Virus record (IMG/VR): IMGVR_UViG_3300032006_002703 | Coordinates: 1-64,000 of that record | Strand: one strand, 5' to 3' | Length of the DNA stretch: 64,000 nt | Source: a virus | Part shown: positions 8,137 through 64,000 of the stretch, piece by piece | How the letters are laid out: each line of letters begins with the position of its first letter | How positions within the stretch are numbered: position 1 is the stretch's first letter | The notes under the pieces: model-generated | What the model was told of the DNA's origin: nothing | The model's input: the letters and a program-made list of their open reading frames with translations, nothing else | The model's database searches: none | Position numbers and translations under genes: made by a program

Positions 8137-8598
8137 ATGAAAAAGAACGAAGTAAAAGTAAAATTAATCGTGCGTCGCAAGAAGAGCGAGCTTGATAAGT
8201 TGCGCGACGAAGACTTTCTGTTCCCTGACGAGAGAAGTTTTCCCATCGTTACGGCAGAAGACGTGGAGGTTGCAATTCATGAATTTAGGCGAATTGAATA
8301 TCGAATGAGACGCGAGGTGTTCCTCGACAAACTCACACGCAAGGCGCGGAGCCTAGGACCAAAATTCATAAATTCACTCTCTCAATCAACGAGAGATCTA
8401 TTAAACATTAAACCTGAGAAATATTCTAATAACCCTCAGAGTTATGCTTACGAAAACAAAGAAGAAGCCTTAAATCGAGCAGAAGAGCTTGGATTAAATG
8501 GTATTCATGAATGCCACTCCCCTAAGGGTACGGCATATGTTCCTGGAAGCACCAAGGAGGAGTTCCTATCTTGGTTCAAGGAGGCTGTTGGCAGCTAA
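8137..8598 (+). CDS. Hypothetical phage protein
   Basis: ORF; start reset to ATG 8137 because the GTG at 8119 is part of the GTGTA motif. Confidence 0.7.
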   Translation: MKKNEVKVKLIVRRKKSELDKLRDEDFLFPDERSFPIVTAEDVEVAIHEFRRIEYRMRREVFLDKLTRKARSLGPKFINSLSQSTRDLLNIKPEKYSNNPQSYAYENKEEALNRAEELGLNGIHECHSPKGTAYVPGSTKEEFLSWFKEAVGS

Positions 8599-9126
8599 CC
8601 TTCCAGGGCCAAAGAATTTCATAAAACCAGCTTTCTGCAGAATGCAATTATATAAAACCTCTGTATAATTATAGGGGAAGCAAAACGATTTAGGAATATA
8701 TCCTAATTCGTCAATAAACGCTTCGCTCATAAGTTTCGTATCCCTATTAAGGAAGGCTCTTTTGTTTTTGGGCTCCATAATTTCAATGTCTTTATGAAAA
8801 TGACTGTGCGCACCTATCTCACAGTTGGGTATTTTTGATATTTCTCGTATTTGACTCCATGTCATGTAGTGTTTTGCAAATCCTGTCCTAAAAAAGTACT
8901 CATGAGCTTTGTCACATGAAGTATATTCTTTTTCTTGAACGCAAAGAGGGTGGCATACAATTCCCGTACTAATAAAAAAGATTTTGCGGGTATCTATTTT
9001 TGCTAGTTTATTTATATATTTGTATTGCGTATAAAGTCCGTCGTCAAACGTTAAAACATAATCTTCTAAATTGATTTCAAATAAGTCTTCATTGACTTCA
9101 TGGATTTCTAAGATTTCTTTGTCCAT
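8566..9126 (-). CDS. Polysaccharide deacetylase (NodB/CE4-like)
   Basis: LTFDDG, GAHSHFH, FCFPY motifs. Confidence 0.85.
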   Translation of the reverse strand: MDKEILEIHEVNEDLFEINLEDYVLTFDDGLYTQYKYINKLAKIDTRKIFFISTGIVCHPLCVQEKEYTSCDKAHEYFFRTGFAKHYMTWSQIREISKIPNCEIGAHSHFHKDIEIMEPKNKRAFLNRDTKLMSEAFIDELGYIPKSFCFPYNYTEVLYNCILQKAGFMKFFGPGRLAANSLLEPR

Positions 9127-9803
9127 GATCCTAAATGTCCGTGGATTGCTCTATAAGCACTATGGTCGCCCAAGGAATGAGATGTTTGTTTATTTTCTTC
9201 TTCGGGGTGACCTAGGATATAAAGCGGTTTAATTTTATGTTTTTTATTATATATATTATACATTTTTGTAATGTATCCTGGCCCAGTTTTCATAAGAACC
9301 TCGAAGTTAGGATTGTCTGGTTCTCTTCCTTCGAATCTTGAAAGAGCATCTAGGTGCTTTTTCCCTATTGATGTCGCAAGTAGCCTCATGAATTCGTTTT
9401 GTTTGTCGCAGGCCATAAGGCAATTGGAAAGTAATGTGTCCCACCCCTTGTCTTTAAAGAAGTTACAGAAGTCAAACTCTACTAAATAGCAACAGTCATC
9501 AATAAATAAATCTTCTATGTTTTCATTAACCTTAATATCAAGATCTAAATACAGTCCACCATGCTTATAAAGAAAGCTAAAACGAGAGATGTCTGATTTC
9601 ATAATATCAGAAGAAGAATCATATAAATCCATGAGGTGCGGAGCAACCTCATTAACAACTTCTCTACTACTTTCATTATCCCAAAGAATATATTTCCATC
9701 CTGGGAAATTTTCGGGTATCGAATTCATATACTCTCGAAACACTTCGGGTATATCTGGATGTATTTCGCTAATCCATGATTGATGTATAATTTTAGGAAT
9801 CAT
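9108..9803 (-). CDS. Glycosyltransferase, GT32 (OCH1-like)
   Basis: IPKIIHQ, SDISR..LYKHGGLYLDLD, TGPG. Confidence 0.88.
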   Translation of the reverse strand: MIPKIIHQSWISEIHPDIPEVFREYMNSIPENFPGWKYILWDNESSREVVNEVAPHLMDLYDSSSDIMKSDISRFSFLYKHGGLYLDLDIKVNENIEDLFIDDCCYLVEFDFCNFFKDKGWDTLLSNCLMACDKQNEFMRLLATSIGKKHLDALSRFEGREPDNPNFEVLMKTGPGYITKMYNIYNKKHKIKPLYILGHPEEENKQTSHSLGDHSAYRAIHGHLGSWTKKS

Positions 9804-10647
9804 AAAGCGCTAATTCGTCTACATATGCCTTGTTGGTATACTTTGTGTTTGCGGTCCCAGACCATACTACGGAATCCTCTTGGAAAATTGGAAAGCCTTT
9901 GTCTCGATTATAAAGCCCCTCATCCTTAAACTTTCGCGGTAGATTATGGATATCTATTTTCTTCTCATATTCCGTAAAAATCTCGGAAATAACAAGCTCG
10001 TCGGAATCCCAGTCAAGTAGGTCGATTTTGTTTTCTATTTTTTTGAACATTTCCCGAATGACAGGAGAGTTGCGTACCCCTATGAAGCCGCCATGATAAA
10101 ACTCTTCTAAATCTGGAAAGCGCAGCTCTTTGGTTTTTTCTTCGCAGAGCTGCCTTATTTGAAAGTCATCATCATTGGAGCATACAACACACAAATCATT
10201 TGATTTAATAAGGTCATATAGCTCATTAAGGTCCTTGCGTACAATCATATCAATATCGCTCATTAATATGTGCTTAAAGCCTGCCTCAAGGGTTCTGTTC
10301 AATGTTTCATATCTTATATTAGAGCAGTATGCCATTTTATCCGAGTACAGCCATCGTGCGCCGCGAAAATCCGTCAGCTTCTCCTTGAAGCCTCGGTCGA
10401 ATTCTTCTTGGAGCAATATGCCTCTTTTGTTTAGATGTTTTCTTTTTGAGTCTAATTCTTTTTGCTCTATGGTGAACCACAAGTCAGGATATAAATCTAT
10501 AGATTCTTCTATTGATTCTGGATTTGTATTTACAAACCTAATGTAGGGCTGAACGCATGTAGCGTTCTTCCTTAAAGACCTTAAAAAGGGCTTTAAGATT
10601 GGAATGTACTCTTGATCACAAGTTGAGATAATAATTAATTTATTCAT
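9793..10647 (-). CDS. GT-A fold glycosyl/nucleotide-sugar transferase (paralogue of 15439-16311)
   Basis: DxD (SDID), GGFI, DWDSDE. Confidence 0.65.
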   Translation of the reverse strand: MNKLIIISTCDQEYIPILKPFLRSLRKNATCVQPYIRFVNTNPESIEESIDLYPDLWFTIEQKELDSKRKHLNKRGILLQEEFDRGFKEKLTDFRGARWLYSDKMAYCSNIRYETLNRTLEAGFKHILMSDIDMIVRKDLNELYDLIKSNDLCVVCSNDDDFQIRQLCEEKTKELRFPDLEEFYHGGFIGVRNSPVIREMFKKIENKIDLLDWDSDELVISEIFTEYEKKIDIHNLPRKFKDEGLYNRDKGFPIFQEDSVVWSGTANTKYTNKAYVDELALYDS

Positions 10648-11746
10648 TGAAATAACTTTCCAACCCTCCTCTCCTTCTCACATCTAGCGTAAGGCAGTGA
10701 TGGGCGCCCGAAAACAACTCGCAGTGTCTTATTGGGCAAGAAATAACCTCCACCTTATATTTTTTGAGCTCTTTTGATAGTATATGCTTGTACTGGTCAT
10801 GACATATAATTAATTCTGGAGAAATTGACAAAAAATTCAACTCTATTCGCGGAGAAGCGAGTTTAATATTCTGGAGCTCGTATTCTGAGGGGTCTCTATT
10901 CCTCATAGGAATATAAATAATATCCCAATTATCAAAAATGCTTGGCAGCTGAATTTCTGGCCTCATCAGTATTCCTAGACCTGGTCTAATCGGCAAAAAA
11001 GTTGAATCTATATGGGAGTCAGTCCATTCTACGGTTATAACTTCAAATTTCTCTCCTACTTGAGCCTGCAACCATTTCGCTCCAAGTCTATGATTCTCAC
11101 AAGAAACATTCATTAGGATTTTATCCCCTAGGCGAAGGCAATTTGCCGCATCAAACATAATTTCATGTCCACAATTCATGGGATGTAAATCACAGCCCCT
11201 CAGTTCCTCGTAACTGTCCCAGGTTAAAGAGTTTTCTCCAAAATAACTTAAGTCAAAACTGTGATCCATTAAGAGGGGTTTGGGCGCTTGAATCCATTTC
11301 GCTCCTTGTTTGAAATATTCTAAAAACAGATGCTTTAAATAATCTGTCTCAAAATATCTCCACCTGCACATAGGGGGAGACTCAATAATTGTATCTCCTA
11401 CTATCATTGTTAAGTCCCTGACATTTAAAGAGGGGTGTATTGTACTCTCCCAGTGAGGGGTTTTTACCCTATGGACTATTCGGGGAACTTTGGGTCTACG
11501 AACTTTTATATTCAAAGACTTAAGTGTCTCTGCAAAGTTTTCAACGTCTTCCTTGTGTTCTTCTACATGGCGTTTTGTTATGTATTGGTGAGCGTCTTCC
11601 TCGAATCTTTTCGTATTATAAATATTATCGTGAAAAAATACCTTAAAAGAAAAATCAAGCGCGGGAAGCTTTGGTGGAAACCCGTCTCCAACAATCACCT
11701 CTTCAAGTGGAGACCATTCGTCGAAACTATTAACTGGGCAAATCAT
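10640..11746 (-). CDS. Amidinotransferase (glycine / inosamine-phosphate StrB1 family)
   Basis: VNSFDEWSPLEEVIVG, RD, FDAAN, HIDST and C-terminal GAHHCLTLD with the catalytic Cys. Confidence 0.88.
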   Translation of the reverse strand: MICPVNSFDEWSPLEEVIVGDGFPPKLPALDFSFKVFFHDNIYNTKRFEEDAHQYITKRHVEEHKEDVENFAETLKSLNIKVRRPKVPRIVHRVKTPHWESTIHPSLNVRDLTMIVGDTIIESPPMCRWRYFETDYLKHLFLEYFKQGAKWIQAPKPLLMDHSFDLSYFGENSLTWDSYEELRGCDLHPMNCGHEIMFDAANCLRLGDKILMNVSCENHRLGAKWLQAQVGEKFEVITVEWTDSHIDSTFLPIRPGLGILMRPEIQLPSIFDNWDIIYIPMRNRDPSEYELQNIKLASPRIELNFLSISPELIICHDQYKHILSKELKKYKVEVISCPIRHCELFSGAHHCLTLDVRRRGGLESYFNE

Positions 11747-12375
11747 CCTTCTGCAAAGCAAATATCTGGAAAAAAGTCCCTTTGGACTGATAGATATTTA
11801 TATTGTTCTATAATTATAGTAAGCCTTGGAGATTCCACGGAGGCTCCAGACAATATTGGGTTAACTGAATGTTTGTAATTCCCAAATTCAACGAATAAGT
11901 TAGTCTTGGGTTTAACCTCAAGAACAGAAGGAGGCACATCATGAATAAGAAGCTCTCCCCCTTTCATCTCCTCTGGTACATTTAAATATAATAGACTCGT
12001 GCAATAAGGCTGAGGAAGTTTAACTGGAGAGTTTAAACCATACATGTATTTATATTTTTCTGGCAGCTGCCCATCTAGATGCGCTGGGATCCCGCCTTCC
12101 TTATGGAGGCAAATCACAGGCAAGTAAAAAATATTGCACCAATCTTTTAGAGATTTTTCAAGAAAAGGGGCGAGCGAGGGAAGCGTTTTGTAAACCTCCT
12201 TGATTGAATTTCTTTTAAAAATGACGCTAAAAGCTTTTTCATATTCATTACTCCCATTGGGCTCTGTGGAGGTCATGTACTCAAAATTCCTGACCTCTTT
12301 ATTAATTTTATCGAGATCGTCTTCGTTAAGAAAGTCTTCTATTATTCCGAATCCAGTTTTTGTATCTCTGTACAT
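11743..12375 (-). CDS. 2OG-Fe(II) oxygenase
   Basis: HLD...LYLN...GGEL...HSV...R facial triad pattern. Confidence 0.8.
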   Translation of the reverse strand: MYRDTKTGFGIIEDFLNEDDLDKINKEVRNFEYMTSTEPNGSNEYEKAFSVIFKRNSIKEVYKTLPSLAPFLEKSLKDWCNIFYLPVICLHKEGGIPAHLDGQLPEKYKYMYGLNSPVKLPQPYCTSLLYLNVPEEMKGGELLIHDVPPSVLEVKPKTNLFVEFGNYKHSVNPILSGASVESPRLTIIIEQYKYLSVQRDFFPDICFAEG

Positions 12376-13184
12376 TTTTGTTTTTGTATTTGTTCGAGAA
12401 TGGTATATTCTGGCATTAGGGCTTCTGTATATATAGAGCTTAGTGACCGATCTAGAGTTTTGTTGATTTTTGTTCCCGAAATTTCTTCTGCATGAGTGGG
12501 CATTATCTCTAGGTTCAACTTATATGTTTTTGATATTAGGGAGCAAAGCTCAAATTTAGAAACAGTGTTTGGAGAAAAAACGTGGCGCAATCCGACTTTG
12601 TACTTATAGTTTAAAATGATATCTGTTACTATTTCTGCTAGAGAAAGGCAGGTTACCCCATTCCAAAAGCAGTTCATGTAACCTTTAATTATTTTTCCTT
12701 TCTGAGAGATAAGCCAAGAAACGAGGCTTCTTGAATGATAAAGCTCTTCACCAATAAAAGAGGTTCTTAAGACCATTGCTTTTCTGCAGGGCTCCATACT
12801 TTTTGTTACTCCATATATATCTTCTGCATCGGGAGTATCAACTTCCGTATAGCTTCCTCTGTTTCCGCTAAAAACACAATCTGATGAAAAGTGGATTAAT
12901 TTTGCGCCTGCTGCATTGCAATAATTTGCAAGAGCATGAGGAAATAGCCCATTAACCTTTATCGCTTCTGTATCAGATTTGATTTGAGGCTTCAAAACTC
13001 CTATGCAATTAATTACGTAATCCCCCTCGTTAAGGGGGAGTGGATATAAAAAATGCGACCTACTGTAAGACTTGGACGCGTCAAGCCTATCTCTTGGAAC
13101 TAGCTCTACTTTATGTAGCTGGTTGAGGTGCCATGCCACATGGCTCCCCAGCAAGCCTGTTGAACCTAAAATAAAAATCTTCAT
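12342..13184 (-). CDS. dTDP-4-dehydrorhamnose reductase-like (RmlD-family SDR)
   Basis: GSTGLLG, HFSSDCVFSG, YGVTK. Confidence 0.88.
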   Translation of the reverse strand: MKIFILGSTGLLGSHVAWHLNQLHKVELVPRDRLDASKSYSRSHFLYPLPLNEGDYVINCIGVLKPQIKSDTEAIKVNGLFPHALANYCNAAGAKLIHFSSDCVFSGNRGSYTEVDTPDAEDIYGVTKSMEPCRKAMVLRTSFIGEELYHSRSLVSWLISQKGKIIKGYMNCFWNGVTCLSLAEIVTDIILNYKYKVGLRHVFSPNTVSKFELCSLISKTYKLNLEIMPTHAEEISGTKINKTLDRSLSSIYTEALMPEYTILEQIQKQKCTEIQKLDSE

Positions 13185-13837
13185 TTCAAATAAGGGCTGA
13201 ATACGGGCAGAGTTGAAAGGTCTACTTTGTAATCTGAAGATTTTCCACTATCTCGATTAATATTTGGTAGTTTGTAAAATTGCTCAATGCCCCTTACTGC
13301 CTCTTCTGGGGTCATATACATATGCCATCCAATCATAGGGGGAGGAGAGTTAATTAAATCGTTATAATATATTGACTCCCTGCCATCGTACCTCGCTGCC
13401 CTCAACCATTTATAAGCCTTACGGTCATCGGTTAAAATCATTCCCCCTCTTCCTATTGATAGTATTTTTTTGCTATGAAAAGACAGGCAATGCAGGTTCC
13501 CTTTCTCGTACATGCCTTTTCTAAACCTCTGAGCCCCATCTATTATATTAAGAGGTTTTAATTGATAAATTCCCTTCCAGTATTTTTTTGAAAAATCAAT
13601 CTTAAACCCACAGTGAGCGACCATCATTGGAACAGATATGTAGGTTTTTCTCGGGACTGTTATTGCTGGATAAGGGCTTCGAGAAAAGTCCTCTAAACCT
13701 TTAAGGTTACCCTTTAGGTACATCATACTAAGAAACAATGCGTTGCTGCAGCTATCTACTGCTACAGCATATTTGCTTCCCGCATAATCTGCAACGAGCT
13801 TCTCGAATAAATTTACGTTGTCCCAAACCGTCTTCAT
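13181..13837 (-). CDS. Short DegT/DnrJ/EryC1/StrS-family PLP aminotransferase
   Basis: YAVAVDSCSNAL, IDGAQ, SFHSKKILSIGRGGMILT. Confidence 0.85.
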   Translation of the reverse strand: MKTVWDNVNLFEKLVADYAGSKYAVAVDSCSNALFLSMMYLKGNLKGLEDFSRSPYPAITVPRKTYISVPMMVAHCGFKIDFSKKYWKGIYQLKPLNIIDGAQRFRKGMYEKGNLHCLSFHSKKILSIGRGGMILTDDRKAYKWLRAARYDGRESIYYNDLINSPPPMIGWHMYMTPEEAVRGIEQFYKLPNINRDSGKSSDYKVDLSTLPVFSPYLK

Positions 13838-14475
13838 GATATCTCCCTTAATATTGTAAATGCCTCAGCAAAACAACGCCCACATTCCATTCCCCTATTA
13901 ATTGCAATATTTGCAATTCCATCTCTGTTTCTTGGATTAGGGAGGTCCCTGTGTTCTGCCTCATACTTTTCAAACGCATCAATTTTTAAAGCGAGATGTT
14001 CATGAGAAAGGTTGCTGTAAAAATTTGGTAAAAATGGCTCCATAAGACCTTGGTTTGTTGAGGAAAGCGCTTCGTATGACAATATTTTTTTCGGTGGAAA
14101 TTTTTGAAAAATTCTACATACTACCGTTGAGGCCTTGAATACCGCTCTGTGATCTAGATTATAATCTCCTACATGGGGAACGTAAACCGTCTCTGGTTTT
14201 ATCGTTTCATAGATTTCCTCTAAGGGTTTAATTATGTCAACGGCGTATCCATCCAGCCTTTCATCTCTTAATCCAAGAAAATAAAGATTTTTATAATTTA
14301 ATACTTCCTGCGATTCTTTTGCCTGAATTCTCTGCTCTAAAGAAAGATCCTTTCTGTCTGCGACGATTATAACGCTTACTTCTTGTTTATTTTCTACATA
14401 CTTAGCTATAGTACCCCCTACGCCAAGCACCTCATCGTCAGCATGAGGAGCTATAATTAGAACTTTGCCATTCAT
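13834..14475 (-). CDS. PIG-L/LmbE-family N-acetyl-sugar deacetylase
   Basis: APHADDE, DxNLDH, FAEAF. Confidence 0.88.
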   Translation of the reverse strand: MNGKVLIIAPHADDEVLGVGGTIAKYVENKQEVSVIIVADRKDLSLEQRIQAKESQEVLNYKNLYFLGLRDERLDGYAVDIIKPLEEIYETIKPETVYVPHVGDYNLDHRAVFKASTVVCRIFQKFPPKKILSYEALSSTNQGLMEPFLPNFYSNLSHEHLALKIDAFEKYEAEHRDLPNPRNRDGIANIAINRGMECGRCFAEAFTILREIS

Positions 14476-15403
14476 AATGTTTTTTTAATCCATCTTTGAA
14501 TGAGGTCTGCGGCTCCCATCCTAAAATTTTCTTAGCTTTTTTAATGCTAACTTCCTTTCCTTGGTATTCAGATTTTACGGAATTATCATATACAATATCG
14601 ACGCTTGCATCTGCAAGGCTTGAGACTTCTTCAGCAACCTCTTTGATTGTTATTTTTCTTCTTCCGTCTAAATTGATTGTCTCGTTTTTTGCAGATTTAT
14701 TGAGTGCAAGCACGTTTCCTCGCGCGTGATCTTTTACATAAAGGAAAGATCTTGCGCTTAGTCCATCTCCTTTGATGATTATTGGCGTCCCTTGCAGTGC
14801 ATTTTTTGTAAAAGAGCTAATAGCGGTAGACTCATTAGCTCCTGGGCCATATGCTACTCCATATCTTAAGATTGTATAATCTAAATCATACATTTCTTTA
14901 AATGATCTGATTAAATTTTCTCCTACAATTTTTGAAGAAGTATATATGTGGGAGTCTCGATTGCTGGGAATTAGAGTTCTTTCATCAACCTTAATATGTG
15001 AATCTTTGGCTGAAGAATATACCCATACGCTGCTAGAAAATATGATTCTCTTGATTTTATTTTTTACGCAAGCTAATAAAACATTCGTTAGACCTGTTAT
15101 GTTTACTGCTATGCCCTCTTCTGGGTTTTCTTTAATCGATCCTGCGTCTGAAATTGCGGCAAGCATATATACAATATCCACCCCCTCAAGAGCTAGACTT
15201 GCTTGCTCTAGGTCTGTAATGTCTGCATAGCGAAACTCAACAATCGGTCTCGGCATTTTAGCTTCTTTGCTCCAATACAAATCTCTTTGGGTTGGCCGTT
15301 CTCTATCAATTACGATTGGCTTGTGGCCATTTTTGATTAACTCGTCAACTGTATGTGACCCTATAAAGCCCGAGCCTCCAATTACTGCTATTTTTTTGTC
15401 CAT
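14438..15403 (-). CDS. NAD-dependent epimerase/dehydratase
   Basis: GGSGFIG, SSS, YTSSK; start reset to ATG 15403, with TTGACA at 15442-15437 acting as a promoter. Confidence 0.9.
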   Translation of the reverse strand: MDKKIAVIGGSGFIGSHTVDELIKNGHKPIVIDRERPTQRDLYWSKEAKMPRPIVEFRYADITDLEQASLALEGVDIVYMLAAISDAGSIKENPEEGIAVNITGLTNVLLACVKNKIKRIIFSSSVWVYSSAKDSHIKVDERTLIPSNRDSHIYTSSKIVGENLIRSFKEMYDLDYTILRYGVAYGPGANESTAISSFTKNALQGTPIIIKGDGLSARSFLYVKDHARGNVLALNKSAKNETINLDGRRKITIKEVAEEVSSLADASVDIVYDNSVKSEYQGKEVSIKKAKKILGWEPQTSFKDGLKKHYEWQSSNYSSSC

Positions 15404-15438
15404 ACTGCAGAGTATAGTACCAAAAACGCAAGCATTTG

Positions 15439-16311
15439 TCAAGCATATAGTTGCTGTTCTTTTAAAAATTTATCTGTTTGAAATTTATGCTCTCCCGCTC
15501 CACACCAGACAGTAGATTCGTCTAAAAATTCCTCGTCTTTTAAGTGCTTAGGTAAGCAGTATACTGACAGGTCGCGCTTAAACTCTTGGTAAGTTTCGTT
15601 AAATAAGGTTTGGTCTGCCTCCCAGTCATATAATTCGCTTGGTTTTCTTATTTTTTCTTCTATTGTTTTGAAAAATTTTCTTGTAACTGGGCTATTTCTT
15701 ATTGTGAATAACCCTGCATGCCATTCAACATATGGTAGCTCCTCTAGCATCCCATTTGAGAGTCTATCGTAATAATCTGTCTTAGGTATATAGTCAGGGT
15801 CAATATATCCCCCTTTAGGCATAAAGGACTCATCATTCGTTTCTATTAGCATTGATATATCGCAATTGACTCCTATACCCTCCAAGTCGATCAGTGGTTT
15901 TCTCACAATTGCATCCACGTCCATATAGGTTACCAACTCTTCTCCCCTGTTTAAGAGTAAATTAATGGTATGAAATTTAATATTGGAACAGTAGGCCATT
16001 TTTTCGCTATAAAGCCATTTGGCTCCCTTAAATCCTAATCCATCCGCCCTTCTCCCGCTATACACACCAAACATTTCGTCTTGTAATGGGGCGCCAGAGC
16101 GTTGGAGTTTTTTGCGCTTTTCGCAGAGGTTTAAATAATCAAAAAGAAAATTAGAGTTATCATGTATTTCTTTGATTTCTTTTGCGCATTCGATTTCACA
16201 ATTAACGAATCTCACATAGAGGTTTGTGTCTGGTGAATTTTGAGCAAGGCTCTTTGCTAAAATTTTTAATAAAGGGTAATATTCCGAATCGGTTGTACAG
16301 ACTATAGTCAT
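15439..16311 (-). CDS. GT-A fold glycosyl/nucleotide-sugar transferase (paralogue of 9793-10647)
   Basis: YMDVDAIV, HAGLF, WEADQ..FN (GT8/GT77-like). Confidence 0.7.
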   Translation of the reverse strand: MTIVCTTDSEYYPLLKILAKSLAQNSPDTNLYVRFVNCEIECAKEIKEIHDNSNFLFDYLNLCEKRKKLQRSGAPLQDEMFGVYSGRRADGLGFKGAKWLYSEKMAYCSNIKFHTINLLLNRGEELVTYMDVDAIVRKPLIDLEGIGVNCDISMLIETNDESFMPKGGYIDPDYIPKTDYYDRLSNGMLEELPYVEWHAGLFTIRNSPVTRKFFKTIEEKIRKPSELYDWEADQTLFNETYQEFKRDLSVYCLPKHLKDEEFLDESTVWCGAGEHKFQTDKFLKEQQLYA

Positions 16312-17018
16312 AGGTTTTCTAGTGTTTGAATTAATTGATCTGAAAGAATGTGAGCTACCTCCGTTAAGCTGTTGCTTTTATATGTCTCTTCGTGTTCATT
16401 AAAGACCTCCCCGTCATTAATTATACAGCCCTGAGAATCAAATAAGCAAAACTTATTATTTTTAAATAAAATTAAGGCGATTTTTCTGTAGGGACTTGGC
16501 TCTTTATTGTTGATAATAATTATTATTTTTGCTTTCGAGGAGTAATTGTCGTAATATTTTCTGGTTGAGTTACTGCTCGTGCACCATTTTGTTCCGTATC
16601 CATAAATTATCGAACTCTCATAGGAAAGTGGACAAATGGCAAGTGTGGAATCGTCATCAAATATTTTTTGAGACTCCTGCCTTTTGATTCTTTTTCGTTC
16701 TGATTCTGAAAATTTCATCTCCAATTCTTTAGTTTTTTCTATTGAAGATTCTCTTTTTATATAATCTAAGTATTCCTTCCTGTTAATTTTGGAAAAAATG
16801 GACCGCTTCCCGCTCTGAGCCATTCCTATAAAATCAGAAATCAGAGACTCTTCAATTAATGGGGTAGTCAGCGCATTCATTTTGGCCCAAGCAGTGATTG
16901 TAAAAAAATCTTTTCCCTGAGAAAGGGAATCAAATGAAGGGTAGCAATCTGAATCTTTGAAAATGTAATTTACCCCTGGATTTCTTAGCTTGTTTGAGAT
17001 TCTAGATAGGTTGCACAT
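16308..17018 (-). CDS. Phage protein with PcfJ-like YGYGTKWC domain
   Basis: PLSYESSIIYGYGTKWC; paralogous to the C-terminus of the upstream gene. Confidence 0.6.
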   Translation of the reverse strand: MCNLSRISNKLRNPGVNYIFKDSDCYPSFDSLSQGKDFFTITAWAKMNALTTPLIEESLISDFIGMAQSGKRSIFSKINRKEYLDYIKRESSIEKTKELEMKFSESERKRIKRQESQKIFDDDSTLAICPLSYESSIIYGYGTKWCTSSNSTRKYYDNYSSKAKIIIIINNKEPSPYRKIALILFKNNKFCLFDSQGCIINDGEVFNEHEETYKSNSLTEVAHILSDQLIQTLENL

Positions 17019-18526
17019 TGCAGTTTCTCCATCGCTGAGAAATTTTTAAACAGAAAATCTAAATGTCTAGAGCTTTGTTTTTCTATAACATTCATGCTTG
17101 AGTCGTATATTGTTTTATCTGTGAGCAATCTATTTGCTTGATCTTCAAACAGCCATTTTCCCGTTTTTTGATTGACCGATAATAAAAATTTATGATTCTC
17201 TTTTTCTTTTTCTGGCCGATTGAAGATAATAAAGAAAAGAGTGAAGTCCTTGACGTCTTCGTAGTGTTCTTTTGTAACAGCGCTACTATAACACCACTTT
17301 GTATCATACCCATACAAAACCATACTTTCATAACTTAGAGGGTGAACAATTAAAAGCTCATCGTTTTCAAATATTTTTTCAGTTTCTTCCTCCTTGATTC
17401 TTCGGCGATCTTGCCAGGGGATTGTGGTTTTGGTTGTGGAATCCGAGCCGCAAGAGTGGAGTTCTGTTTTGCTCGCAATATTGTAAGGGTTTTCTTTTGA
17501 AATAAAACTCAGCCAATTTTCCTTGGTAATCCTTGAGGCCATTTTTGAAGATAATTCTGGCAGTTTGTCTTTAATGTTTTTATAAGATTCTACCCGAAAG
17601 AAATACTCTTCTATGCCCTCCTCTCCAAATGCTGGGCAATGTGCCGATTTAAAATCCTGAAAAGTGAAGAAGCCTTTTTTCTTTTGATCTATTTCCTCAA
17701 AGGTAAGGTAGCTGTTGTTGTTTGCGAAAATTATATTCTTATTAAAAATTTTATCGTACATACTAAAATGCAAGCATCCCTTGTTTGCGTTCCAGTATTC
17801 ATTTTGGTTTTTTTGTTGAAATTTAGAAGCGTGCGCCGCTAGCGGTGGGGCGGGGAGCAGTAATGCTGGCCAATAGTTTAGGATTTCACTAATTGAATTC
17901 GCGGAAGATAGGGTGCTGTCGGCCTCCTCTTCGGAAGCCTCAATCAACTCAAATAAAGAATCAATCTCCTCGCTGGCCAGAAGGTCTCCGTCTGATTCCG
18001 CCATCTGTTTTTCTTCCTCGAGCATTTTCAGTGCCTTATTTTTTTTAGAAGAAATGCACTCTTTCCATTTTCTTTTACAAGTTTCAATTATTTTCGATTC
18101 AGATTCTCTTTTTCCTGGGTCAGCCTCAAGAAAGCAATAATAATCTTGGTCTTCTTGCTTTATGTCCTCGTTGATGATTATCTTTAGGCAAGTTTTATAA
18201 TCCGAGCAATACTCGCTTGCATATTTTTGCGCAGTTTCTTTGATTTTTTCAATTTCGCTTAAAACTTTTAGATTCGTTGCTCTAATTTGATCGGAGTCCA
18301 TGTGGTTTGATGCAAGAGGCGTTGAGCCTTCGGGGAGATGAGAAACCTCAAGGCTTATAATATCCTGAAGCTTTGCGTTGATCTTTGATTCGGAAATGAC
18401 ATCAAAAAATTCATCTTCGCTTAATTCGCTTCCAGAAACTTCAGGGCTCTTTGTACAGTAATAGAATCCGTCATTGAATTTAATTTTAACGATTAATTTT
18501 TGTATAATTGATAGGTAAGGATGCAT
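16985..18526 (-). CDS. Phage protein with helical N-terminus and C-terminal PcfJ-like domain
   Basis: PLSYESMVLYGYDTKWC; start reset to ATG 18526. Confidence 0.6.
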   Translation of the reverse strand: MHPYLSIIQKLIVKIKFNDGFYYCTKSPEVSGSELSEDEFFDVISESKINAKLQDIISLEVSHLPEGSTPLASNHMDSDQIRATNLKVLSEIEKIKETAQKYASEYCSDYKTCLKIIINEDIKQEDQDYYCFLEADPGKRESESKIIETCKRKWKECISSKKNKALKMLEEEKQMAESDGDLLASEEIDSLFELIEASEEEADSTLSSANSISEILNYWPALLLPAPPLAAHASKFQQKNQNEYWNANKGCLHFSMYDKIFNKNIIFANNNSYLTFEEIDQKKKGFFTFQDFKSAHCPAFGEEGIEEYFFRVESYKNIKDKLPELSSKMASRITKENWLSFISKENPYNIASKTELHSCGSDSTTKTTIPWQDRRRIKEEETEKIFENDELLIVHPLSYESMVLYGYDTKWCYSSAVTKEHYEDVKDFTLFFIIFNRPEKEKENHKFLLSVNQKTGKWLFEDQANRLLTDKTIYDSSMNVIEKQSSRHLDFLFKNFSAMEKLQCATYLESQTS

Positions 18527-18531
18527 AATAA

Positions 18532-20355
18532 TTAATCTCCCCAGTTTGTAATTGGAAGCCAATTTGCTTGAGGGAACCATTCTATATTATTTGGTTGCGT
18601 GGAGAAATCTATATCATAATTAATAAAATACTCAACTCCCGTAATAGAAGTATAGGACGTAAGTATACCAAACCAGCTCCAGCCTCCACAATTAAAAATA
18701 TTGTAACCGAAGGTTGCATGGGGGAGGACCGAAACAAATCCTACCTGAGGATCATCACTCCAATCAAGGGTTCCAGTTGCTTGGCCAACCAAGCTATCTT
18801 GGGTAACCCAATAGCCCACAGCTGTGCACGGATCAATCGTTTTGCCGTCTGATTTTCTTATCCTTCCTACATTTGATAATGTTGCGGTAAGTCCATCTGT
18901 TATTCCTCCATCAATTTTCATATTTACATGGGCATGGGGATATGCTTGAACGGCGCCATTAGCATTGCCGTCTAGGGAAAAGTCAGACTCAGTCCCCGAG
19001 TCCCATTCATTTTTTGGAAGCTCGAAATAGGCTGTTCCATGGGGAACAAAATAAACATCCCACGTTTGCTCTCCAAAATTTCCAATTGCATCCACAGCGT
19101 TCACGTGCCATGCTGTTCCGTTATTTAAATTAGGCATTGAAAAACCTATCGCTGAGACTTGGGGATAACCTGCTGGCGGATTGGTTGGGAGTACGTTATA
19201 AGCTGCCCCACCTGGATTTGGAAGCGTTGCCCCTTGTCCATAAAAACAACAAGGGCTTTTTCTGTAAATATAAATTCCGTCTCCATAATGAACTAGGTTT
19301 GGATTTTGAATATCCACAGGGGAACCTGGAGGAAGTCCTGCGGAAGTTCTATACCCCATTTGACCGTCCCAAATATTGACATTGCTTCCTTCGCTATTTG
19401 TTACAATTCTTCTTGTATATGTTGTTATTGTGTTTGTTTGATTAAGTTCTTGAGTATTGCATTCGAATGAACTTGTCGAAGAATTTGTCGCAGACCATGC
19501 TTCTGAAAATTTAGGTAAAACCTCTGTTCCTGGCGGAATTTCAGGAGACAGGCTATATGTTATGGAACTATTCTCTCCGCCCCAGAGCCCCTTATCTCTA
19601 AGCCCAGCCAGTTCGGCATAAAAGGTATCATTAAAAGACGAGCCTCCTTTTAATGTCAAAGTGAAGTCTTCGTATGGTAATTGCAGCGCCCATCTTTTGA
19701 TTGGTCTGTGCTCTACTACCGCTTCTGTTGTTCCTCCTCCACTGATGTGGCGCCAAGCCATAACAGACTCAAAGGTTCCCTCCTCCGCTTGAATTAAACC
19801 TGGATTTTCCACGGCATCAACAGTGGTTGGTGGAATATTTAGTTTCCAGTCTCCCCCTGCCGAATAAGCCGCATCATCCGTCAGTGGGGTCATCAGGGAG
19901 TCGTTGTAATAAAGATTTGCATAAAGTTGATTTGACAACCAATTACCCAAGCGACCAAAGGTTGTCTCTTTTCTTACTCCCTCTGGTCCATCGTTTGGGA
20001 TATTGCCCGCCCAACGATCATCAAGCGGATCATTGTCTCCTGGAAAAAATGCAAGCTGCAAAATAAGTATCTGGCCTCCAACCAAAGTGTCCCCGTCTGC
20101 TAGGCCTGCGGCTGAAGCATAATTTCCTATATGATCCCATGAAAAAGGGAATCCAGCGGGTTCGGATGCATGCTCTTTGGATACATTGACTAGCCACATC
20201 CATGCTGGGGGATCTGCGGTAATAACATCTCCATCATCAGTTATTATTTGGTCGGTCCCATTTGTAGACAAAGTGTCCGACTCTCCAACTCGAAGGTCCG
20301 CGCTTTGGGAATACTGTGTATTCCAGGGAAAAATTGCTCCTGGCGTTGTACTCAT
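18532..20355 (-). CDS. Putative virion/tail-associated protein (607 aa)
   Basis: G/T/P/N/W-rich, Lys-poor composition typical of fibre or receptor-binding proteins. Confidence 0.5.
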   Translation of the reverse strand: MSTTPGAIFPWNTQYSQSADLRVGESDTLSTNGTDQIITDDGDVITADPPAWMWLVNVSKEHASEPAGFPFSWDHIGNYASAAGLADGDTLVGGQILILQLAFFPGDNDPLDDRWAGNIPNDGPEGVRKETTFGRLGNWLSNQLYANLYYNDSLMTPLTDDAAYSAGGDWKLNIPPTTVDAVENPGLIQAEEGTFESVMAWRHISGGGTTEAVVEHRPIKRWALQLPYEDFTLTLKGGSSFNDTFYAELAGLRDKGLWGGENSSITYSLSPEIPPGTEVLPKFSEAWSATNSSTSSFECNTQELNQTNTITTYTRRIVTNSEGSNVNIWDGQMGYRTSAGLPPGSPVDIQNPNLVHYGDGIYIYRKSPCCFYGQGATLPNPGGAAYNVLPTNPPAGYPQVSAIGFSMPNLNNGTAWHVNAVDAIGNFGEQTWDVYFVPHGTAYFELPKNEWDSGTESDFSLDGNANGAVQAYPHAHVNMKIDGGITDGLTATLSNVGRIRKSDGKTIDPCTAVGYWVTQDSLVGQATGTLDWSDDPQVGFVSVLPHATFGYNIFNCGGWSWFGILTSYTSITGVEYFINYDIDFSTQPNNIEWFPQANWLPITNWGD

Positions 20356-20386
20356 ATTCTTTGCCCCATGGCTACCCGTAGGTTGA

Positions 20387-20587
20387 TTATTTTACCTGTT
20401 TTCTTTTGCTTTTAATTCGGGCAACCTCTTCATCCAAGATAGCTTCTACGCGTTTATTTTTTTTGTCCAGCATTAGATCTGCTGGACTTTTTCCACCAAG
20501 CTTTTCGTTTTCTGCCTTAAGCCAGCAAGTGGACTCGTATCCATTTAGATTTTTGCTTAAATATTCCAATATGTTTCTGCTACTCAT
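20387..20587 (-). CDS. Xre/MbcA/ParS (DUF2384-type) antitoxin C-terminal domain, stand-alone
   Basis: WLKAENEKLGGKSPADLM matches the WLxxPNxxLGGxxPxxLL signature. Confidence 0.7.
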   Translation of the reverse strand: MSSRNILEYLSKNLNGYESTCWLKAENEKLGGKSPADLMLDKKNKRVEAILDEEVARIKSKRKQVK

Positions 20588-20617
20588 GCAATTACTAATA
20601 TAGTAGTACACAAATCA

Positions 20618-63920: not shown

Positions 63921-64000
63921 TTACAATGAAGCAATATAGTCGAGGCTATAATCTGCGCTAGGCGTTTCATCCGAGAAGATGAAGGTAGCCCCCGAGGTGG
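63921..64000 (-). CDS. 3' end of a gene entering from the right edge
   Basis: Open frame ...TSGATFIFSDETPSADYSLDYIASL* upstream of the terminator. Confidence 0.6.
   Translation of the reverse strand, partial: TSGATFIFSDETPSADYSLDYIASL

Follow-up and report, generated by a model that had tools for sequence, protein, structure and literature searches.

IMGVR_UViG_3300032006_002703 is a 107-kb IMG/VR virus record, estimated to be 76% complete, of an uncultured marine phage. The window considered here is the whole stretch of 64 kb (64,000 nucleotides) of that record that was analyzed, and its element of interest is a cassette of ten minus-strand genes (positions 8566-16311) in which an L-arginine-type amidinotransferase is embedded among sugar-tailoring enzymes, deacetylases, an oxygenase, and glycosyltransferases (GTs). 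As part of a glycan pathway, the cassette probably amidinates a sugar amine. Its aminotransferase and two deacetylases would each yield primary amines, and an arginine-type amidinotransferase lies among them, so that the simplest interpretation is the conversion of one amine to a guanidine. Recurrence of the cassette in unrelated phages likewise suggests that its probable product is a positively charged chain of amino/guanidino sugars. Phage clusters of sugar and glycosyltransferase genes are already known; an amidinotransferase step inside one has no characterized counterpart. Such clusters are usually filed as “lipopolysaccharide (LPS) genes,” whereas the amidinotransferase in this one points to a definite chemistry, namely a guanidino sugar marked by a mass gain of 42 Da and a lasting positive charge. 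To our knowledge, a strongly cationic guanidino-sugar modification of glycans is undescribed in any virus and almost unknown outside streptomycin-type antibiotics.

The coordinates and family assignments of the cassette genes are collected in Table 1. An earlier note on this DNA had described overlapping genes of these enzyme families, and all ten are confirmed on the minus strand, with catalytic motifs that are kept in viral homologues. Each junction overlaps by 4-38 nucleotides. The tight overlaps reported for 8566-16311 stand, but the gene run is longer than the note had it: it continues upstream to 20355 through three more open reading frames (ORFs) and is unbroken from there to 8566, the cassette forming its last ten genes. 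Searches of PHROGs and NCBIfam are concordant with the Pfam assignments. All ten proteins lack membrane segments and signal peptides; they are predicted to be soluble and cytoplasmic.

The amidinotransferase and the conservation of its cassette

The amidinotransferase has no Pfam or NCBIfam match, and it aligns over residues 5-371 of 373 with the solved enzymes SxtG (3e-49), StrB1 (2e-48), HsvA (2e-46), and AGAT (1e-42). Counted along the alignment, its residues D204/H250/C356 fall on D179/H227/C332 of StrB1, the catalytic triad, and these three together with D252 of the HxD motif are invariant across 18 homologues. The alignment bears out the intact Asp, His, and Cys motifs reported in the earlier note, and the enzyme looks catalytically intact from its sequence. 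Closeness to StrB1, AGAT, and SxtG was judged by profile bit scores; a 99-sequence tree of the family was built without these three. Scores with the family profile are nearly equal (SxtG 243, StrB1 241, HsvA 219, and AGAT 212 bits), which indicates a genuine member of the family that is not specifically StrB1-like.

The enzyme set had been called streptomycin-pathway-like in the earlier note. StrB1, the L-arginine:inosamine-phosphate amidinotransferase of streptomycin synthesis (PDB 1bwd), belongs to the same family, shows full-length homology with an aligned triad, and acts after the DegT-family enzyme StsC. The logic resembles that of the window, in that a DegT enzyme makes an amine that is then amidinated on a sugar-like acceptor. 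Kinship, however, is not borne out: the window enzyme resembles SxtG, HsvA, and AGAT as closely as it does StrB1 and lies in a virus-only clade, and the operon has no cyclitol pathway (a cyclitol synthase included), phosphorylation, or nucleotidyltransferase genes. In addition, its DegT enzyme is a 218-residue mini form, and the context is one of three GT-A-type glycosyltransferases and two deacetylases in a phage. The link to streptomycin is only an analogy.

In the tree of 99 amidinotransferase sequences, the cassette-linked viral enzymes form one clade with an SH-like approximate likelihood ratio test (SH-aLRT) support of 100, apart from cellular homologues. The cellular sequences (Streptomyces, filamentous cyanobacteria, Myxococcota, and Bacteriovoracaceae) are at most 44% identical, and at 66 of 70 cellular loci no other cassette gene was found within 10 kb. 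As a unit, the cassette thus appears to be virus-specific and absent from the sampled cellular genomes. Two metagenome-assembled genomes of Bacteriovoracaceae (L101 and L103) provide the sole cellular loci in which a DegT-like gene adjoins the amidinotransferase homologue, a weak resemblance of 25-26% identity over about 240 residues. More distant viral amidinotransferases (L035, which is the same as L004, and L036-L043) are 38-41% identical and fall outside the window's clade. The L035/L004 gene is surrounded, beside a T4 portal, by sulfotransferase, radical S-adenosylmethionine (SAM), asparagine-synthase-like, RidA, ATP-grasp, and methyltransferase genes; loci of this type probably make a different product.

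A profile search with the amidinotransferase returned 40 viral loci, whose neighbors were compared by tblastn and ORF clustering. For about 22 of these loci, whose amidinotransferases are 53-62% identical to that of the window, the order of short-chain dehydrogenase/reductase (SDR), PIG-L, mini-DegT, RmlD, amidinotransferase, GT8, and GT32 genes is kept; the same gene set in the same order in so many other contigs lies far beyond chance. These contigs often also carry two SPASM radical SAM genes, a short class I/II aminotransferase, a canonical GT8, and unassigned genes. Nine more loci (49-51% identical) have only PIG-L, the amidinotransferase, and GT8/GT31/GT32 genes. The co-occurrence that the earlier note had set as its own refutation test was therefore found: the gene set recurs, and PIG-L, the amidinotransferase, and a GT-A gene are linked in 31 of the 31 contigs of sufficient length. 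PIG-L is the most constant partner, and in all 31 contigs the amidinotransferase of the window's clade is translationally coupled between sugar enzymes and glycosyltransferases.

The carriers of the cassette belong to different phage lineages. The window record comes from a tailed phage and encodes a large terminase, a DnaE-type polymerase, a ClpB-like ATPase, ribonucleotide reductase, DnaB helicase, PhoH, and Hsp20; its terminase is at most 26% identical to that of any sequenced isolate, its polymerase is about 28-34% identical to DnaE-like genes of sequenced isolates, and no near-identical DNA was found among sequenced phages. A T4-type portal is present in the three cassette-bearing contigs checked for it, and some carriers are T4-like jumbo phages; no T4 portal was found in the window phage, and the DnaE of the window phage was found in none of five cassette contigs checked. 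The presence of the cassette both in T4-like phages and in a non-T4 phage with DnaE indicates that it has moved as a block between unrelated lineages and works as a unit. A small ORF of 61 codons, rich in Lys and Ala (it contains AAGTRARKALLEI) and about 66% identical among its copies, has the GT32 gene on one side and a Zn_protease-like gene on the other in 13 related contigs; neither it nor any other conserved small ORF was found in the window's cassette. No annotation was obtained for the genes upstream of the cassette in these relatives.

Sugar-tailoring enzymes, glycosyltransferases, and the oxygenase

The SDR, whose true start is probably an internal ATG ahead of MDKKIAVIGG, has UDP-glucose 4-epimerase as its best solved match (4zrm, 5e-33). 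Its GxGFIG motif and S...YxxxK site are conserved in 20 viral homologues, which lack the Asp/Glu pair. Val-Trp stands at the position of the acidic residues in 4,6-dehydratases and decarboxylases, and assignment of the enzyme to either of these classes was rejected on the missing acidic pair. Of the earlier designation as an NAD epimerase/dehydratase, the GalE-type S-Y-K epimerase site is retained but the dehydratase function is not. The RmlD-like reductase keeps its SDCVF and YxxxK motifs in 16 viral homologues.

The aminotransferase is reduced in size. Enzymes of the DegT/DnrJ/EryC1/StrS family have a two-domain architecture of about 360-400 residues, whereas this protein has 218; alignment to solved enzymes shows that about 40 internal residues are deleted and that most of the C-terminal domain is gone. 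The earlier assignment to DegT/StrS thus holds for the family, the Asp and Lys residues, and the fold, in a mini form only. D100 and K123/K124 do not vary among 16 sequences, and the Lys aligns with that of the solved enzymes. Related phages share the short form, at 50-59% identity in the nearest cassettes and 36-43% in two outliers, and the family profile matches perosamine synthetase at 1e-16. An AlphaFold2 (AF2) model with a mean predicted local distance difference test (pLDDT) score of 86 superposes on nucleoside diphosphate (NDP)-sugar aminotransferases with Z scores of 17-18.6, the top matches being the C4 aminotransferases DesI (Z 18.6 over 190 residues) and WecE (Z 18.1). If active, the mini-DegT would be among the smallest sugar aminotransferases known.

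Both deacetylases keep their catalytic residues. The HxDD and DH motifs of the PIG-L protein are conserved across 24 viral homologues, and the carbohydrate esterase family 4 (CE4) protein, which has no hydrophobic segment, has TFDDG and HSHFH motifs when read from its translation. The usual substrates of the PIG-L and CE4 families are N-acetylglucosamine residues that have already been transferred.

The two GT8-like proteins are paralogues with 34% identity. Paralogue 1 reaches 21 bits with PF03407 against a cut-off of 22, and the window pair taken alone falls under all Pfam cut-offs; relatives of the pair match PF01501 at 1e-6 to 9e-19. In the family alignment (A4) the DxD motif is invariant, and the profile matches LgtC (4e-6) and then WbbM, with further matches to GlyE and, weakly, Gat1. 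The earlier GT-A calls are thus supported at the level of the family but not by the single proteins. The HQxW and GGxYxDxD motifs of the GT32 are conserved in 11 viral homologues.

Similarly, the 2-oxoglutarate (2OG)-Fe(II) oxygenase named in the earlier note is below the Pfam threshold, but the residues expected of such an enzyme are kept: H99-x-D101 and H169 (the facial triad) and R184 (the 2OG-binding Arg) are invariant in the family. Its AF2 model (pLDDT 89) has the double-stranded beta-helix of prolyl 4-hydroxylases (P4Hs). The model matches Pseudomonas P4H/EF-Tu (Z 15.7), Dictyostelium PhyA (Z 15.3), PHD2 (Z 14.7), and the collagen P4H of PBCV-1, vCPH (Z 14.0), more closely than AlkB-type enzymes (Z 12-13) or sugar-tailoring 2OG enzymes (Z 11-12). 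By this comparison the oxygenase looks most like protein prolyl 4-hydroxylases, and its substrate may be a protein.

Table 1. Cassette genes of the window, adjacent genes, and conserved features of related contigs (aa, amino acids; PLP, pyridoxal phosphate)
Feature	Coordinates	Strand	Evidence
GT8-like GT-A glycosyltransferase, paralogue 1, 290 aa	15439..16311	-	Weak PF03407, 3.6e-4
Extended SDR, GalE-like NDP-sugar epimerase/oxidoreductase	14438..15442	-	PF01370, 8e-47
PIG-L/LmbE-family de-N-acetylase	13834..14475	-	PF02585, 9e-19, 68.7 bits against cut-off 28.2; BshB-like in NCBIfam
Mini DegT-family PLP sugar aminotransferase, 218 aa	13181..13837	-	PF01041, 2e-17
RmlD-like NDP-4-keto-6-deoxyhexose reductase	12342..13184	-	PF04321, 7e-19; TIGR01214, 2e-16
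2OG-Fe(II) oxygenase, prolyl-4-hydroxylase-like	11743..12375	-	PF13640, 2e-4, below Pfam threshold
L-arginine-type amidinotransferase (AGAT/StrB1/SxtG/HsvA family, pentein superfamily), 373 aa	10640..11761	-	Full-length matches to solved members
GT8-like GT-A glycosyltransferase, paralogue 2, 284 aa	9793..10647	-	No Pfam match alone; DxD at D131/D133
GT32-type glycosyltransferase (DXD sugar-binding region)	9108..9803	-	PF04488, 2e-13, 51.3 bits against cut-off 23; PF05704, 3e-7
CE4 (NodB/PgaB-type) polysaccharide de-N-acetylase, no signal peptide	8566..9126	-	PF01522, 6e-10, 39.6 bits against cut-off 23.1; phrog_26430, 6e-24
Three ORFs without family (236, 531, and 607 aa), same run, upstream of cassette	16308..20355	-	Overlapping junctions; no Pfam match
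Ser/Thr-rich tail-fibre-like protein, 220 aa	20618..21280	-	phrog_2097 tail fibre, 1e-8; Ser+Thr 29%
FolE2/QueD/QueE-like/PhoH set downstream of cassette in related contigs (examples)	L005:5509-6558; L005:7969-8604; L013:15983-16723		
61-aa Lys/Ala-rich ORF of related contigs	L005:4349-4534 and 12 other loci		

The predicted pathway and its target

The substrates, order of steps, product, and target given here are predictions, as are the guanidino-sugar product and the targets that the earlier note had named. In general, host nucleotide sugars would enter a self-contained cytoplasmic pathway of tailoring and transfer that ends in a short glycan with free amino and guanidino groups. The GalE-like SDR would interconvert UDP-hexoses or UDP-N-acetylhexosamines. 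The mini-DegT would convert an NDP-4-keto-6-deoxyhexose to an NDP-4-amino sugar, and the RmlD-like enzyme would reduce the same kind of keto intermediate to a 6-deoxyhexose; because the phage SDR is not dehydratase-like, a host dehydratase is the probable source of this keto sugar. The two GT8-like enzymes and the GT32 would transfer three sugars, and PIG-L and CE4 would take off N-acetyl groups after transfer. The amidinotransferase would pass the amidino group of L-arginine to a sugar amine arising from either PIG-L or the mini-DegT, yielding a guanidino sugar. The likeliest acceptor would be a protein, and among proteins a virion fibre of the kind encoded just upstream; the site of attachment would be made or modified by the prolyl-hydroxylase-like oxygenase.

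This pathway as a whole, in which a cationic amino/guanidino glycan is built in the cytoplasm with a protein (a virion fibre) as the likeliest acceptor, is proposed tentatively, and a protein target taken by itself is possible rather than probable. A protein is favored because of the P4H-like oxygenase, the soluble retaining GT-A enzymes of protein-glycosylating kinds, and a tail-fibre-like gene immediately ahead of the operon; the GT8 profile also touches the protein-glycosylating GT8 enzyme GlyE and the Skp1 enzyme Gat1. Giant viruses and mycobacteriophages offer precedents, in that they encode the synthesis of glycans on their virions. Several points weigh against such a pathway. The SDR has no dehydratase residues, and the host source of the keto sugar is assumed. 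About half of the cassettes have no oxygenase, so hydroxyproline is not a universal attachment site. No co-conserved acceptor protein or peptide was found among the cassette contigs, and neither a collagen-like protein nor one with proline repeats was seen in the window phage genome. Among solved enzymes the GT8 family comes closest to LgtC, which acts on lipo-oligosaccharide. Movement between unrelated phages would suit a target that does not depend on lineage (host envelope, DNA, or a soluble product) no less well than it suits one particular virion protein.

A different target would give the same chemistry another role. Remodeling of the host envelope, in which a host lipid-linked glycan (LPS or lipo-oligosaccharide core, capsule, or cell-wall precursor) is edited at the cytoplasmic face of the membrane, would leave a cationic sugar on the surface of the infected cell and so block superinfection or help release; this is unlikely, but several observations fit it. 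In addition to LgtC, the next solved match of the GT8 family is the O-antigen enzyme WbbM, and the CE4 enzyme is PgaB-like. The module of amidinotransferase, radical SAM, and two GT-A genes in Campylobacter phage CP220 lies three genes from a membrane PAP2 phosphatase, a distant amidinotransferase paralogue of Synechococcus phage S-SCSM2R adjoins KdsA and KdsB, and mobility between unrelated phages is what a host-owned target would lead one to expect. Yet the operon and its relatives encode only soluble proteins, with no membrane protein, flippase, polymerase, ligase, or polyprenyl-phosphate transferase, and it is hard to see what an oxygenase of the prolyl-hydroxylase type would do on a lipid-linked glycan. 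Distinctly improbable is a soluble, aminoglycoside-like product, a free cationic pseudo-oligosaccharide acting against the host (e.g., its ribosomes) or competitors. The families are those of aminoglycoside synthesis (PIG-L like BtrD, DegT like BtrR/StsC, the amidinotransferase like StrB1, and, in relatives, SPASM radical SAM enzymes like BtrN), all of the enzymes are soluble, the module is self-contained and mobile, and the versions in S-SCSM2R were labeled “antibiotic synthesis genes” by their authors (PMC12801897). Against this, the ten genes include no cyclitol synthase, nucleotidyltransferase, exporter, or self-resistance gene; three glycosyltransferases without an aglycone-forming enzyme would be atypical, and cellular amidinotransferase homologues do not carry the cassette.

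The hydroxylated DNA bases suggested as a target in the earlier note are now disfavored. In such a hypermodification, a sugar placed on a modified base would be deacetylated and amidinated to give a cationic, restriction-resistant genome; it is the least supported target and very improbable. About ten related T4-like contigs (L005-L020) have FolE2, QueD-type 6-pyruvoyltetrahydropterin synthase (PTPS), QueE-like 4Fe-4S protein, and PhoH genes just downstream of the cassette, and an amidinotransferase and GT-A module occurs in the CP220-type Campylobacter phages, whose DNA is heavily modified. However, queuosine-type genes like those of the related contigs were not found in the window phage (107 kb). 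Searches of the 107 kb whose controls were positive found no thymidylate-synthase-type hydroxymethylase (PF00303), ThyX (PF02511), C5-methylase (PF00145), TGT/DpdA (PF01702), PTPS (PF01242), or FolE2 (PF02649), so that no base-activating enzyme of the searched families is present in a record that is 76% complete; the TET/JBP search (PF12851) gave no match in the phage genome and none with its control. The oxygenase is prolyl-hydroxylase-like and optional among cassettes, and we know of no DNA glycosyltransferases among GT8 and GT32 enzymes. That the amidinotransferase is an independent metabolic gene (for guanidinoacetate, homoarginine, or an amidino-polyamine) merely lodged in a sugar operon is extremely improbable: its homologues are named “glycine amidinotransferase” in databases, the polyamine amidinotransferase HsvA is as similar as StrB1, and other viral clades (at most 41% identity) have neighbors unrelated to sugars (ATP-grasp, asparagine synthase, and methyltransferase genes), but the coupling between sugar enzymes and glycosyltransferases in its own clade holds without exception and across unrelated phage lineages. 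A target other than protein, host envelope, soluble product, or DNA is rather unlikely.

The significance of the cassette depends on where the product resides. On virions it would serve adsorption or protection in a new way; on DNA or the host surface, a new chemistry of anti-restriction or exclusion; and if soluble, it would mean that phages make aminoglycoside-like compounds. It is conceivable, if somewhat doubtful, that many marine phages and the cultured carriers of partial cassettes put a guanidino-sugar glycan on a macromolecule (a virion fibre or possibly DNA).

Counterparts in other phages and neighboring genes

In agreement with the earlier note, neither a characterized phage pathway of this kind nor a paper naming its product was found in the literature searched. 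Partial versions do occur in cultured phages. In the Campylobacter phages CP220 and CPt10, radical SAM genes and a “glycine amidinotransferase” were described as an interchangeable module without an assigned function (Timms et al. 2010, PMC2853527). The CP220 order is four radical SAM genes, a hypothetical gene, the amidinotransferase (33% identical to that of the window), a fifth radical SAM gene, and two GT-A genes, with the PAP2 phosphatase nearby. These phages resemble the window in having a phage-borne amidinotransferase followed by two GT-A-type transferases. They differ in their five radical SAM genes and in the absence of adjacent PIG-L, mini-DegT, SDR, or RmlD genes; the window has no radical SAM gene, whereas two of the SPASM type are found in its closest relatives.

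The cultured cyanomyovirus S-SCSM2R has, in one run, a mini-DegT (33% identical), a radical SAM gene, 2OG oxygenases, several glycosyltransferases, and an amidinotransferase (30%). Its cluster is annotated with an “AHBA (3-amino-5-hydroxybenzoate) synthase,” a radical SAM maturase, and an “inosamine amidinotransferase,” which its authors interpreted without experiments as serving antibiotic synthesis and called new to cyanophage genomes (PMC12801897). A second, more distant amidinotransferase and the neighboring 2OG oxygenase were detected in S-SCSM2R virion preparations (PMC12801897). The S-SCSM2R sequences are very divergent and lie on long branches outside the window's clade, and PIG-L, SDR, and RmlD homologues were not detected within 9 kb.

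In the cultured Flavobacterium phage immuto, a mini-DegT (38% identical) lies beside a gene annotated as a “pilin glycosylation protein,” an SDR, and glycosyltransferases. We take the annotated protein to be a PglB/PglD-type acetyltransferase. Bacillosamine-type pathways (PglF, PglE, and PglD: dehydratase, DegT, and N-acetyltransferase) resemble the window in that an SDR and a DegT-type C4 aminotransferase feed glycosyltransferases, but in the window the amine-capping enzyme would be an amidinotransferase rather than an acetyltransferase. If the immuto neighbor is an N-acetyltransferase, the amidinotransferase would stand in place of the N-acyl-capping step; as PIG-L is its most constant partner and it would occupy the capping position of the mini-DegT, either amine could be the acceptor. 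The likeness ends with the SDR, which has no dehydratase residues in the window, and with the RmlD-like enzyme and two deacetylases, which have no counterpart in bacillosamine synthesis. The partial versions in S-SCSM2R, CP220-type phages, and immuto make the puzzle of the CP220 module, posed in 2010, experimentally approachable.

The cytoplasmic glycosylation of Skp1 on hydroxyproline (PhyA, followed by the GT-A enzymes Gnt1, PgtA, and AgtA or Gat1) resembles the window in its soluble P4H-like oxygenase and soluble retaining GT-A, and the sugar aminotransferase L136 of Mimivirus is among the structural matches of the window's mini-DegT. The Skp1, Mimivirus, chlorovirus, and mycobacteriophage systems have no amidinotransferase or de-N-acetylases, and the oxygenase of the window is optional among cassettes; the resemblance to Skp1 and virion-glycan systems is functional only. 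The cultured siphophage Stenotrophomonas phage DLP_3 (L116, 64670-70095) has PIG-L, a WcaG-type SDR, a full-length WecE/DegT, an “Erm”-annotated methyltransferase, and a 482-residue glycosyltransferase close together, and this locus reads as another uncharacterized phage sugar-amine module.

Upstream of the cassette, family searches gave no usable family for the 607- and 236-residue proteins. The 236- and 531-residue ORFs (16308-18580, minus strand) have a common C-terminal domain with the motif YGYGTKWC, which falls in phage-only protein clusters with a weak PcfJ lead. A consensus promoter scan returned fewer sites (31) than shuffled sequence (38), and no GTGTA box was found within the cassette operon. 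One GTGTA box near 20607, the sole such box upstream of the whole 12-kb gene run, precedes a 66-residue ORF (20386-20587, minus strand) located between the tail-fibre-like gene and the 607-residue ORF. The tail-fibre-like protein contains in its translation at least five GGAHTH/HxH repeats that resemble the metal-binding repeats of T4-type fibre tips, and it is a possible candidate for the glycan acceptor. At the edge of the window (63921-64000) begins a 320-residue protein with 33% Ser+Thr (63921-64883 of the genome), in the region of which the phage may carry a second, separate glycan system.

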